Shown: positions 33,310 to 34,523 of the stretch, piece by piece
Layout of the letters: every line of letters starts with the position of its first letter
Numbering within the stretch: position 1 is the stretch's first letter
NCBI GenBank assembly: GCA_964550845.1
Contig: CAZKAD010000001.1
Span: forward strand, 21,342 to 85,341
Source: an uncultured Gammaproteobacteria bacterium
GTDB taxonomy: Bacteria > Patescibacteriota > Patescibacteriia > Magasanikbacterales > UBA922
Reading direction: 5' to 3'
Length of the DNA: 64,000 nt
The notes under the pieces: model-generated
The model's database searches: none
Told to the model about the DNA's origin: nothing
The model's input: only the letters and a program-made list of their open reading frames with translations
Program-made: the position numbers and the translations under genes

Positions 33310-34415
33310 ATGAACTTCCTCATTACACACGGTCCTTGTCTTGATGGTGAAACTTGCGCTTTGTTTCTCAAACAATGGGCAGATGAGCAAAAAGAAACAT
33401 TGCAAACGGTATTTTGTTTCGCTGGGCAACTTTCAGTTGATTTGATTAAGAGGAAAATGCCTGAGAATACATGTCGAATCTTTATTTGCGATTTGACTGT
33501 GAATCAAGAAACACTCGAATATCTTAATAATCTGAACAAAGAAGTCTGGATCATCGATCATCATCGATCATCATCGATCATCATCAAAAACTTTCCAATG
33601 TTCCTGAAAAAATTACTTATCTTCATCGAGATCGTTGTGCGGCGTGGATTGTTTGGGAAAAATTTCGATCGAATTCTGAAGCAGTCACTCCAATTCTTCG
33701 GGGAGTTCAGCCTGAACTTCTTCAATATATCGACGAACAAGACCGAGGTCTTCATCACCGTCCTTATTTGAAAGAAATCATTTCTGCAGTTCATTTTGAG
33801 AAGAAGAGGATTGGACTTGAAAGAGTGTTTCAAGAATTTTCTGTCGATCGATATATTCAAATCGGAACGATTCTTGCTGAATATCGAAAAACCCAGGTCG
33901 ATGAGATGATTAAATATGGCTACAAACGAAAGTTTAATTGGAAGGGAAAAGAATATAACGTCTTGTTGATGAGTGGAGATCGAACTCTCCGAAGTGAGGG
34001 TCTCGAAGAATCAAAGGCTGACATTACCATGTTTTACACTTACGATGCAGCAACGAATGAATTTTGGGTTGCTTGTCGAAGTCAAGAACTTGATCTTTTG
34101 CCTATCATTTCAAATATCACCTGGTGTAGCGGGAATGAATTTCGAAAAGGTGGAGGGCATCCTAAAGCTTGCGGTTTTACCGTCAATCAAGCAACCACCT
34201 TCGAATTCATCACAATGATGGAAGGATCGGTGTCGCCTGCAAGTTATCATCAACCGAGTCAGACAGGATATAAAATTGAGCTACAGGGACTTGTCCCGCA
34301 AAAGTTTTGCTTTCCAATTTTCTTCCATAGTTGGATTAACGATTTGCTCAAAGCAATTGAGAAATTTGATCAAGTAATTTCTGAAGGGACTTCGAGGGTT
34401 GACGAAATTTATTAA
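33310..34415 (+). pseudogene. DHH/DHHA1-family phosphoesterase gene disrupted by a frameshift inside a 10-bp tandem triplication
   Basis: Frame 1 gives MNFLITHGPCLDGE...EVWIIDHH. Frame 0 downstream gives QKLSNVPEKITYLHRDRCAAW...GGGHPKACGF (DHHA1 GGGH). The shift occurs in (ATCATCGATC)x3 at about 33551-33580. One or four copies would restore the frame. Promoter AAAATTGA at 33276-33283. Confidence 0.7.
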
Positions 34416-34523
34416 ACGTCTCTTCGAGACTAGTTAAACATCGAGACGATTGGTTAAACGTTCCGGAGGAACTGATTAAACGTTCCGGAGGAACTGATTA
34501 AACATTCCGGAGGAACTGATTAA
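34412..34523. repeat. 5 x about 22-bp tandem repeat TTAAACGTTCCGGAGGAACTGA (and variants)
   Basis: The first unit supplies the TAA stop of the DHH gene. Units contain the GTTCC-gga-GGAAC mini-hairpin. Confidence 0.9.

Follow-up and report, generated by a model that had tools for sequence, protein, structure and literature searches.

A TTAAAC repeat family in mimivirus-like DNA

The window, the whole 64-kb stretch of DNA analysed here, is giant-virus DNA of a mimivirus-like kind, encoding a family-B DNA polymerase, RPB1 and a capping enzyme. Its promoters carry AAAATTGA, most of its stop codons are trailed by long palindromes, and non-coding spacers make up only ~9% of the DNA. At the locus that had been flagged for study, a DHH/DHHA1 gene ending at 34415 runs into five tandem units (array e), the first core of which contains the TAA stop of that gene. 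The stems of these units read, in order, GTCTC/GAGAC, ATCG/CGAT, GTTCC/GGAAC twice and ATTCC/GGAAC, and in the fifth copy pair 1 is broken, with A opposite C.

Array e belongs to a repeat family with ~14 loci in the window, roughly one per 5 kb and in both orientations (Table 1), whose neighbours include kinase, ATG8-like, DHH/DHHA1, RNase H, phosphatase, Rho_N and helicase genes. Each unit consists of TGR-TTAAAC-[G/A]T followed by a 4-6 bp palindrome with a loop of 3-8 nt, and can be read as an imperfect palindrome that runs from TTAAAC through [G/A]T-Y-Y(Y), the loop, (R)R-R-A[C/T] and TGR into the next TTAA. The core TGRTTAAAC[G/A]T is invariant over 9-11 bp, and the units repeat with periods of 17-31 bp and a mode of ~22 bp (21-22 bp being about two helical turns). 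With its AT-rich outer arms, pyrimidine/purine inner arms and TTCG/CGAA-type loops, the unit is a miniature of the virus's canonical 3' palindromes.

Table 1. Repeat loci of the window and the long palindrome adjoining array e; TRF, Tandem Repeats Finder
Feature	Position	Strand	Composition and context	TRF call
Array a	8769..8831	+	Two 29-bp long-type units: hairpin, TCTTTGAAGTGG, TTAAAC; first core degenerate (ATAATG), containing the TAA stop of kinase-like gene 7116-8768; a lone TTAAAC lies past the array at 8863	8772-8832, 29 bp x 2.1 copies
7-bp TTAAACN repeat, x 3.7	12675..12700	+	Begins in stop of gene 11830-12678	
Array b	12755..12870	+	Four identical 22-bp units (TTAAACGTCTCTTCAAGACTGG) and two decayed units; between stop of gene 12843-13799 (-), which the core at 12843 overlaps, and a shared long palindrome	12755-12848, 22 bp x 4.3 copies, 100% identical
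One full unit and terminal core	13958..13984	-	First TTAAAC contains stop of gene 13981-14454 (-)	
Array c	18881..18947	+	~3.3 units, each of 20-21 bp and with a poor hairpin; located between divergent genes, downstream of AAAATTGA at 18856 and touching the ATG of an ATG8-like gene at 18949	18881-18936, 20 bp x 2.7 copies
Single unit and partial core	22577..22603	+	Begins in stop of kinase gene 21063-22580	
TTAAAC as outer arm of 12-bp palindrome (TTAAACATTCCTCGAGAGGAATGTTTAC)	22621..22648	-		
Single well-formed unit (TTAAACGTCCCTTCGGGACTGG)	24535..24556	-	Antisense, in last codons of gene 23217-24566	
Array e	34412..34523	+	Five units	34454-34524, 22 bp x 3.2 copies; two diverged units upstream, from 34412
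Canonical long 3' palindrome	34527..34560	.	~13-14 bp stem, common to convergent genes; adjoins array e, outside the repeat family	
Array f	43562..43598	-	One long-type unit and second core; flanked by two plus-strand genes, to which it is antisense	
Single unit	43736..43757	-	Antisense, in first codons of gene 43720-44403 (translated FNQSQETFN)	
Degenerate remnant (TTCAAACGTCTCTCGGACTGGTTAAAT)	51535..51575	+	Fills RNase H / phosphatase convergent spacer	
Array h	52112..52151	-	One 30-bp long-type unit and terminal core; first core contains stop of Rho_N-domain gene 52148-53866 (-); long palindrome next	
Array i	53935..53996	+	Three 20-21-bp units between divergent genes; terminates in GATTAAAAAATTGA, which contains the AAAATTGA promoter motif of RPB1	53933-54001, 21 bp x 3.3 copies
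Array j	59511..59576	-	Three 22-bp units between helicase stop (59537) and long palindrome; first unit overlaps last codons and stop of helicase gene 57747-59537, opposite strand	59511-59577, 22 bp x 3.0 copies

The family is far more abundant than chance would give, with 16 matches to GTTAAACRT against 0.93 expected (0/100 shuffles reach 16); TTAAAC itself occurs 82 times against 52.8 expected, and the arrays account for the excess. Tandem Repeats Finder puts the internal identity of the arrays at 91-100%, and stems vary from array to array. Being head-to-tail direct copies that are more alike within than between arrays, the units behave as minisatellite or slippage-type repeats do. No part of the window matches an Rfam family at the gathering threshold.

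A first-pass annotation had already described a ~22-bp TTAAAC repeat family here, and this family is real. Its account of the unit as a TTAAAC core plus mini-hairpin stands, except that the hairpin is trailed by 3 nt (TGR) and not by ~5 nt, and that the units at 18881 barely form hairpins. The arrays listed at 8773, 12755, 18881, 34412, 53934 and 59511 were all recovered. By contrast, the tandem array assigned to 22581-22650 resolves into one unit at a stop (22577) and a TTAAAC embedded in a 12-bp palindrome (22621-22648), which from its sequence we take to be an intermediate between the unit and the canonical 3' palindrome. The entries at 43575-43620 and 52112-52155 hold only two cores each, ~30 bp apart, and form a long-unit subfamily with the array at 8773; that at 51535-51580 is degenerate (TTCAAAC, TTAAAT). 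The loci at 12675-12700, 13958-13984 (-), 24535-24556 (-) and 43736-43757 (-) were absent from the earlier list.

Hairpin arms covary

Across the window and related loci, 39 of the 81 TTAAACRT sites are followed by a hairpin with 4 bp or more of perfect pairing that begins exactly at R, whereas only 5.1% of control RT positions are. We probed for covariation in 33 distinct units picked regardless of pairing. Anchored pairs were Watson-Crick in 82% of cases compared with 12-28% in slid registers, and shuffling of the arms gave a mean of 64% pairing, with 0/10,000 shuffles reaching the observed value. In these units pair 1 is G-C in 21 and A-T in 4, pair 3 is C-G in 20 and T-A in 6, and pair 4 is C-G in 19 and T-A in 6. 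The arms thus covary, from G-C to A-T and from C-G to T-A, a pattern from which we infer that the hairpin forms and that it is maintained by compensatory change.

The hairpins are weak. Their predicted free energies of -2.6 to -7.3 kcal/mol (z = -0.1 to -1.2) are no better than those of shuffled sequence, compared with -13.5 kcal/mol (z = -3.9) for the canonical long palindrome at 34527-34560, and with stems of 4-6 bp the units are not the long, stable palindromes past the stop that the giant-virus hairpin rule describes. As to which strand folds, G-T wobbles in the sister virus favor the TTAAAC strand (-8.3 vs -3.1 kcal/mol), but window variants place A-C mismatches on that strand and the overall picture is mixed.

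Repeats lie in spacers and coincide with stop codons

All but three of the 53 units fall in spacers, which are very short. Units are present in 10/25 convergent (40%), 7/89 tandem (8%) and 3/23 divergent spacers, the difference between convergent and tandem spacers being significant (p = 3e-4). The location of two arrays, 18881 and 53934, between divergent gene starts, as first reported, is confirmed.

Cores contain 14 of the 148 stop codons in the window and related loci, where ~2 would be expected. The stop falls within a sense TTAAAC in the genes ending at 12678, 13981 (-), 22580, 34415 and 52148 (-), and within the antisense core GTTTAA in those ending at 12843 (-) and 59537; the stop of gene 15577-16212 (-) lies inside a lone TTAAAC with no unit after it. 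TAA can be read from either strand of the core (T-TAA-AC and GTT-TAA), so an array flush against a gene supplies a stop whichever way it points. The link between TTAAAC and stops that the first-pass annotation had drawn therefore holds for the set, although its list of individual genes was partly wrong: the stop labelled 33310 should have been that of the gene ending at 34415, and those at 50961 and 51570 lie in variants only (TTTAAC and TTAAAT).

Roughly one spacer array in two starts precisely on a stop codon, and arrays occupy the 3' region of the adjacent gene in either orientation. Manual reading of tandem spacers placed 8 of 10 arrays sense to the upstream gene, which hints at a strand preference there. 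The idea that arrays replace the long palindrome has mixed support: 10 of the 16 array-bearing 3' regions still have one, and in the other 6/16 the units are the only palindrome. Units also occur in frame within a Peptidase_M23 gene, where they are translated as KRPSELV repeats.

Several arrays stand beside AAAATTGA promoters (array i and those in the related loci L024, L029 and L035), and the genes upstream of arrays include some with AAAATTGA and others without it. With arrays set aside, TTAAAC was found within 40 nt upstream of the ATG in ~4 genes by manual count (~1.3 expected), which is not a clear enrichment and gives no evidence for the late-class promoter signal that had been proposed. 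Since AAAATTGA is not embedded in a TTAA-type extended consensus, fusions such as GATTAAAAAATTGA look incidental or insertion-site-derived.

Arrays turn over between close strains

We compared the window with strains that share 92% nucleotide identity (L035) or a 96% identical RPB1, and with a sister virus (L039). Close strains differ both in copy number and in the presence of arrays, by whole units (1 vs 3, 3 vs 1 and ~4 vs 0), as is characteristic of minisatellites. In L035, array a keeps its position, with units diverged more than their flanks; array b lacks its four identical units; only TTAAAAACGTTAAAATG stands in place of the 12675..12700 repeat; and the 13958 locus has three full units compared with one in the window. 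L035 also has an extra array at the stop of the kinesin gene. The protein ends in ...IQNEF in both strains, with a TGA and no array in the window and a TAA from an antisense array in L035.

Array i is absent from L038, where the empty site CCAGATTAAAAAATTGA keeps one GATTAAA and the promoter is intact, and array j has three copies in the window compared with a single proto-copy in L038. At the stop of the Rho_N gene, L038 carries an antisense array built from another unit variant than that of the window, and the sister virus has none. Conversely, the RNase H / phosphatase spacer holds three 17-bp units in the sister virus compared with the degenerate remnant in the window. Between strains 92-96% identical, neighboring proteins are unchanged whether arrays are present, absent or flipped.

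Unit variants recur at separate loci: TTAAACGTCTCTTCGAGACT at 34412, at 43598 and in L038, and TTAAACGTCCCGAAGGACT at 53935 and 52151. The sister virus has its own "master" unit, an identical 17-mer (TTAAACATCCTTCGGGG) found at three of its loci. These comparisons show that copies of a unit variant appear at new loci and that arrays expand and contract locally by whole units. Viruses whose DNA polymerases are only 76% and RPB1 only 68% identical nonetheless share the TTAAAC[G/A]T core and the hairpin, and conservation over this distance requires either a sequence-specific mechanism of propagation or a function. The possibility that the arrays are chance similarities or assembly artefacts, to which the coincidence of arrays with short-read contig ends might point, has a negligible probability given the same arrays in independent NCBI, Logan, JGI and ENA assemblies and the large enrichment of GTTAAACRT.

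Candidate explanations for the repeats

We give about an even chance to the reading that the TTAAAC repeats are lineage-specific interspersed hairpin mini-repeats, REP-like or minisatellite-like, which spread, slip and are mostly neutral or selfish; of the alternatives put forward in the first-pass annotation, selfish mini-satellites is the one that the turnover data support best. Arrays would grow by replication slippage or unequal recombination assisted by the hairpin, and TTAA(A) sequences might seed new loci through microhomology or template switching. Copies would persist where they do least harm, between convergent genes and flush with stop codons, and 21-bp arrays could be tolerated even in frame within genes. 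The preference for convergent over tandem spacers is as expected of a tolerated parasite. Individual arrays would be dispensable and any effect on mRNA 3' ends secondary. Some observations sit uneasily with this reading: the stop-flush start of about half of the spacer arrays is more precise than tolerance predicts, and the clade-wide conservation of core and hairpin, the sense bias in tandem spacers, the 3' regions with no other palindrome and the failure of the window protein scan to turn up a mobilizing enzyme also speak against it.

A main role as a 3'-end or termination signal, which the first-pass annotation had favored in proposing a distinct processing element, is not supported; a modulatory role may exist. 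A weaker version, in which the units are auxiliary 3'-end, termination or insulator elements, is possible and is the foremost competitor, though we think it distinctly less probable than neutral or selfish spread. Here the units would be weak canonical palindromes acting as fail-safes chiefly between convergent genes, where serial copies after a stop or behind a long palindrome would limit antisense RNA from read-through. The excess of stops within cores, the strong enrichment in convergent spacers, the resemblance of the unit to the apex of the long palindromes (with 22621-22648 as intermediate) and the clade-wide conservation of the core all fit such a role, as do the 6/16 array-bearing regions that lack another good palindrome and the three convergent spacers (b, j and L029) in which the array stands behind a long palindrome, sense to the upstream gene. 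Hairpins of 4-6 bp would probably be poor RNase III substrates, and these fold no better than shuffled sequence. Giant-virus mRNAs are indeed cleaved and polyadenylated at hairpins, but the unit stems are much shorter than the palindromes recognized by the viral RNase III (PMC5413956). Moreover, the hairpin of the unit is followed by TGR-TTAAAC and not by the T run of an intrinsic-type terminator. Arrays in 3' untranslated regions take either orientation, tandem spacers are occupied at far under half the convergent rate, and divergent spacers, which contain no 3' end, are occupied at a rate matching that of spacers that do. Near-identical strains differ in whether an array is present, absent or flipped, and a long palindrome persists in 10/16 array-bearing 3' regions.

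We consider it improbable that the units are mobile elements served by a dedicated enzyme, as REPs are by RAYT or IS200/IS605 elements by TnpA, with insertion targeted to TTAA/TAA. The design of a conserved 5' oligonucleotide plus hairpin, the hairpin formation implied by covariation, a lineage-specific master unit at several loci, insertions exactly at stops with the protein unchanged and the single GATTAAA at the empty site of array i all suit such elements. Against them, known REP or IS200/IS605 hairpins have longer stems, and direct tandem copies can be explained by slippage. Slippage accounts equally well for flanking TTAAAC copies, which are thus no proof of target-site duplication. Polymorphic sites often keep decayed units, so many strain differences are expansions or contractions rather than insertions; this, with the short tandem units of 17-31 bp, also departs from the design of a MITE. 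A Pfam scan of 60 window proteins (the genome being at least 259 kb) found no Y1/HUH transposase or RAYT. The sole recombinase seen in the window, a serine recombinase at 36661-37644, has no repeat units at its borders, and the 478-aa ORF beside it, considered as a TnpB/Fanzor, had no significant match among solved structures (best E = 0.65). It is equally doubtful that a DNA enzyme encoded by the virus and specific for both sequence and hairpin (a RAYT/IS200-like HUH protein or another nuclease) acts on the units and inserts them at TAA/TTAA. If it did, a REP/RAYT-type system would be on record in a eukaryotic virus for the first time, and it would be one that repeatedly rewrites stops and C-termini, as in the C-terminal extension of the helicase, the exchange of stop codons and the KRPSELV repeats that lie in frame.

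Similarly unlikely, in our judgment, are arrays of double-stranded binding sites (TGGTTAAACGT) for a viral protein, which would serve like baculovirus hrs as enhancers, replication origins or packaging/organizing sites. Protein binding would be in keeping with the invariance of the core over 9-11 bp, the 21-22 bp modal period, the spread of the loci (about one in every 5 kb, pointing either way), the several arrays that adjoin AAAATTGA promoters and, as with hrs, a copy number that differs between strains. However, with periods of 17-31 bp and loops of 3-8 nt, the repeats maintain no helical phasing and no half-site spacing, and compensatory change in both arms is unexpected for a protein of fixed specificity. 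Binding sites also give no rationale for the stop-flush position or the preference for convergent spacers, and promoter-side arrays are dispensable, as the absence of array i from L038 illustrates.

Relation to known repeat systems and consequences

A close likeness is to bacterial REP/BIME elements, which are also short imperfect palindromes beside a conserved oligonucleotide, extragenic and present in many copies, lie near stop codons and between convergent genes, singly or in clusters, turn over rapidly between strains and are mostly dispensable. The oligonucleotide there is GTAG and here TTAAAC, with no sequence relation, so the likeness is one of analogy and not homology. REPs further form inverted pairs (REPINs), whereas the units here are head-to-tail direct copies with stems of only 4-6 bp, in a virus of a eukaryotic host and with no RAYT gene, which in bacteria is typically bracketed by the repeats, in the window scan.

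The Mimivirus-type 3' palindromes of the "hairpin rule" (PMC5413956), reportedly set out by Byrne in 2009, occur in the same genome. Like the units, these palindromes lie just past stops and combine AT-rich outer arms, pyrimidine/purine inner arms and TTCG/TCGA/CGAA-type loops, and 22621-22648 is a hybrid of both. They are, however, unique sequences with stable stems of 9-15 bp (z = -3.9), one per gene end, while the units share a consensus, stand in tandem, have 4-6 bp stems and are polymorphic between strains.

Baculovirus hrs, likewise in a large DNA virus, consist of direct repeats built around an imperfect palindrome, arrayed at scattered intergenic sites, with copy numbers that vary from strain to strain. 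Their units are larger (~70 bp, of which the palindrome takes up 30 bp) and serve as enhancers or origins bound by IE-1, unlike the stop-anchored units of 17-31 bp described here. Rickettsia palindromic elements are selfish palindromic repeats of compact genomes that can sit in frame in genes, and the MITE-derived repeats of pithoviruses and pandoraviruses also invade compact genomes, those of pithoviruses forming intergenic arrays. Both are ~100-150 bp long, 5-7 times longer than our units, with recognizable terminal repeats and no homology to them.

Among IMG/VR viral contigs, neither an exact 44-mer nor a hairpin-tail pattern had any match. The three-core pattern TTAAACGT, run without a control motif, matched 10 times; six of these matches lie in other giant-virus bins and were set aside as chance tandem repeats, since they lack a hairpin and show just one array at each locus. 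A literature search on the motif and on REP elements in giant viruses returned nothing relevant, and we found no published description.

The usual picture of a giant-virus genome is one of tight packing and unique 3' palindromes. In this lineage, a repeat family with a consensus spreads from gene end to gene end over the time that separates strains. The repeats alter stop codons, extend or decorate proteins and break short-read assemblies, whose contigs end at arrays, and in this way affect the annotation and binning of metagenomic giant viruses. As strains with and without a given array exist, they offer a natural experiment on what the 3'-end machinery tolerates. If a dedicated enzyme moves the units, REP/RAYT-like biology would extend from bacteria to eukaryotic viruses; if they are fail-safe terminators, the hairpin rule could be satisfied by arrays of weak hairpins.

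Unrelated short tandem repeats in the window likewise begin at stops (42177 and 10523), and a relative with 52% DNA polymerase identity has its own 10-12-bp repeats, which together suggest that the lineage is prone to slippage generally.

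The TTAAAC units and their hairpin

The window carries an interspersed family of tandem hairpin mini-repeats built on a TTAAAC core. GTTAAACRT occurs 16 times where 0.93 copies are expected, and the arrays account for the excess of TTAAAC itself (82 versus 52.8 expected). Read across all copies, the unit consists of TGR-TTAAAC-[G/A]T-Y-Y(Y), a loop of 3-8 nt and (R)R-R-A[C/T], after which the next TGR-TTAAAC begins. Its period is modally 22 bp and ranges from 17 to 24 bp, apart from a long subfamily of 29-31 bp with an extra TCTCTGAAGTGG (at 8773, 43575, and 52112). Owing to the self-complementarity of TTAA, a unit and the following core form an imperfect palindrome of ~26 nt. 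The family has no match in Rfam. Tandem Repeats Finder reports arrays at the places where the first-pass annotation had seen them, except that three of those listed (22581, 43575, and 51535) are single units or remnants, and the list lacked the loci at 12675-12700, 13958-13984, 24535-24556, and 43736-43757.

The small hairpin is maintained, yet weak. In 39 of 81 TTAAACRT sites a perfect stem of 4 bp or more starts exactly at R, compared with 5.1% of control positions. Among 33 distinct full units, picked by core and spacing only and with pairs anchored from both ends, Watson-Crick pairs make up 82% with the tail set at 3 nt, versus 12-28% once the register is slid; when 3' arms were shuffled among units, 64 ± 3% were paired, and none of 10,000 shuffles reached the observed value. 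The pair types are compensatory (pair 1: G-C 21, A-T 4; pair 3: C-G 20, T-A 6; pair 4: C-G 19, T-A 6, G-C 1), showing that the hairpin does form at some point, whether in DNA or in RNA. Thermodynamically the stems are marginal, with folding energies of -2.6 to -7.3 kcal/mol (z -0.1 to -1.2) for single units; array b folds no better than shuffled sequence (z = +0.4), while the canonical palindrome adjoining the repeats, one of the long palindromes that follow stop codons, reaches -13.5 kcal/mol (z = -3.9).

Positions of repeats and sequence signals in the window and, where named, in other contigs
Feature	Position	Remarks
Array a	8769-8831	
Array b	12755-12870	
Array c	18881-18947	between divergent starts; downstream of an AAAATTGA, abuts ATG
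Array e	34412-34523	
Array i	53935-53996	between divergent starts; just upstream of the RPB1 AAAATTGA
Array j	59511-59576	
AAAATTGA, examples	1447, 2762, 18856, 54001, 57696	
Canonical palindromes, examples	2743-2766, 11161-11194, 34527-34560, 57000-57023	
9-bp repeat x 7	42177-42241	TRF consensus AATCGGAGT, from stop TAATCGGAG; TAA in each unit
7-bp ATATTGA x 3.6	10523-10547	at or just after stop
9-bp GAATTGAAT	46917-47078	spacer-filling repeat
39 bp x 2.7	32062-32165	own hairpin CCGAGAAAC...GTTTCTCGG; unrelated to TTAAAC family
44 bp x 2.1	43341-43432	100% identical; unrelated to TTAAAC family
Tandem repeats of L041, examples	1977-2002, 9173-9266, 15482-15578, 22410-22582	
TTAAACGT arrays	L012-L015, L019, L021	bins GVMAG-M-3300027785-8, GVMAG-M-3300020595-32

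Genomic setting and placement of the units

The window has a G+C content of ~36%, and a crude set of ATG-initiated ORFs covers 91% of its 64 kb. It encodes a family-B DNA polymerase, RPB1, a trifunctional-type capping enzyme, the ribonucleotide reductase small subunit, a flap endonuclease-like protein, several kinases, an ATG8 homologue, and a kinesin interrupted by a Hint/intein domain, a gene content that points to a nucleocytoplasmic large DNA virus. A 259-kb NCBI contig encodes a protein 100% identical to the DNA polymerase, and the window is matched at 100% identity by four Logan contigs (SRR10036081 and SRR10036082). The octamer AAAATTGA, known as the early promoter octamer of mimivirus type, is present in 40 copies (25.9 ± 5 expected), 25 of which have a same-strand ATG 17-108 nt downstream (criterion: within 150 nt), and this distribution is suggestive of an Imitervirales-like transcription system. 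After most stop codons comes a unique AT-rich palindrome of 9-15 matched pairs, with an apex that is typically YYCYC, then TCGA or TTCG, then GRGRR; convergent genes have one in common. The octamer and palindromes after stops are features typical of mimivirus-like viruses. The gene-end palindromes have the same arrangement as in the "hairpin rule" for mRNA 3' ends of Mimivirus and Marseilleviridae (PMC5413956).

When the window was pooled with five loci from related viruses, 50 of 53 TTAAAC units lay in intergenic spacers. Units occupied 10 of 25 convergent, 7 of 89 tandem, and 3 of 23 divergent spacers (convergent versus tandem, p = 3e-4), and spacers containing a 3' end were not richer in units than divergent ones. 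In convergent spacers the array sits between one gene's stop and the common long palindrome, and may run with or against that gene; a long palindrome is also present in 10 of 16 array-bearing 3' regions. The earlier proposal that the core supplies stop codons held up: 11 of 148 stops lie within sense TTAAAC, 8 of them beginning a unit, and three more within antisense GTTTAA, against ~2 expected, so that the core offers TAA on both strands. Likewise borne out were two arrays between divergent gene starts (c and i). In a cluster of paralogous genes, the entire unit at 43736-43757 is translated as FNQSQETFN and a start codon at 45984-45992 falls within GTTAAACAT, the complement of the core.

This paralogous cluster (39320-45992) comprises about eight ORFs of 190-255 aa without Pfam matches, several of which begin ATGTTT (MF...). 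Directly downstream of array c lies a gene for an ATG8/LC3-like ubiquitin-fold viral protein (18949-19383, + strand; Pfam ATG8, E = 2e-16), and the ATG8-like gene adjoins the kinesin gene in L041, a relative with 52% DNA polymerase identity, too.

Array turnover between strains

Strain comparisons are the most informative evidence on the family. We compared the window with L035 and L036 (~92% DNA identity) and with L038 (RPB1 96% identical). Array a keeps its position between strains, with units that have diverged further than the flanks. Of array b, L035 lacks the four identical units and retains decayed ones only; the array at 13958 has three units in L035 versus one in the window. At the kinesin stop, L035 has an array and the window none; the protein ends in ...IQNEF in both, the stop being TGA in the window and, in L035, a TAA belonging to an antisense unit. 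Array i is absent in L038, leaving the empty site CCAGATTAAAAAATTGA. In the window the helicase gene's final 22 bp, stop included, are triplicated as array j; L038 has one copy, and this C-terminal extension is wholly missing in the sister virus, L039. At the stop of a Rho_N-domain gene there is a sense array in the window, an antisense array of another unit variant in L038, and none in the sister virus.

The sister virus (76% identity in DNA polymerase, 68% in RPB1) does carry the family, with one 17-19-bp variant in all arrays; three of its loci, all inside a 23-kb stretch, share the 17-mer TTAAACATCCTTCGGGG exactly. The family is also found on NCBI metagenome contigs JACCDN010507572.1, JACCDN010544314.1, and JACCDN010483335.1, which show further stem variants (e.g. 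ATCCC/GGGAT and GTCCT/AGGAC) and have AAAATTGA motifs and long palindromes. In one more strain, L034 (JGI 3300038404, 1527-1590), a Peptidase_M23 gene contains a 21-bp TTAAAC array in frame, translated as KRPSELV-KRPSELV, hence the repeat can be carried as protein sequence. The family is absent from L041, in which gene order is conserved; this contig has many 10-12-bp tandem repeats, some starting exactly at stops, and few AAAATTGA motifs. A scan of IMG/VR gave no hairpin-type copies. Tandem arrays of 21-22 bp starting TTAAACGT, without the hairpin, occur there in unrelated AT-rich giant-virus bins, and their likeness to the family is probably coincidence.

A proposed reading: an interspersed repeat that slips

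We give about an even chance to the reading that the TTAAAC family is an interspersed repeat capable of both dispersal and slippage, surviving where it is harmless. This reading draws jointly on the rapid gain, loss, flipping, and whole-unit changes in copy number, on identical variants at separate loci together with lineage-specific master units, on the preference for convergent spacers, and on the tolerance of either orientation, of promoter regions, and even of in-frame gene copies. Since the core is conserved across the clade, a sequence-dependent propagation step, or some function, is needed. We favour array growth by slippage that would be assisted by the hairpin, together with seeding of new loci that may proceed by microhomology at TTAA(A), a sequence often present at stops because the genome is AT-rich. 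In behaviour the family comes nearest to the bacterial REP/BIME class, but sequence, stem length, direct-repeat arrangement, and a RAYT gene missing from the 64-kb window argue against membership.

A rival reading gives the units an auxiliary part in forming 3' ends or in insulating against read-through, where the first-pass annotation had favoured a distinct 3'-end element. The association with stops, the bias towards convergent spacers, and the likeness of units to the apex of canonical palindromes speak for such a role, which we nevertheless consider doubtful given the weak stems, the dispensability of arrays at the strain level, the copies in divergent spacers, and the lack of strand consistency. 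An hr-like binding array on double-stranded DNA would fit the invariant core and the modal two-turn period, but is improbable in view of the variable spacing, the arm covariation, and the anchoring on stops. Just as improbable is mobilisation of the units by a dedicated nuclease, for which the scan covered the window's 64 kb out of at least 259 kb in the whole genome.

In the literature we found no description of the TTAAAC family, nor of REP-like repeats in giant viruses. For annotation, the repeats matter in that they supply stops and C-termini and that assemblies break at arrays; array-bearing and array-less strains constitute a natural experiment on viral 3'-end signals. The family overturns nothing so far.

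Other repeats and candidate mobile elements

Slippage at gene ends seems to be general in the window's genome; the unrelated 9-bp (x 7) and 7-bp tandem repeats (Table) likewise begin at or just after stops. The region 36661-39234 holds the gene for a serine recombinase (Resolvase domain, 327 aa) and, after it, an ORF of 478 aa that has no Pfam match and no significant match to solved structures, and whose 3' end runs into a tandem repeat of 94 bp x 2.1 (39036-39234). An IS607-like insertion could account for this region. Elsewhere in the sister virus there is a Resolvase gene too (L039, 643-1446).

The DNA polymerase of the window (2824-5781) is without an intein, and a 95%-identical DNA polymerase from another sample (P0002), of 1465 aa, has the intein domain PF14890; judged from these genes, the intein is a presence/absence polymorphism between close strains. 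The kinesin motor gene (16275-18800, - strand) is split by a Hint/intein-type domain (Hom_end_hint), and both gene and intein are conserved in L041.
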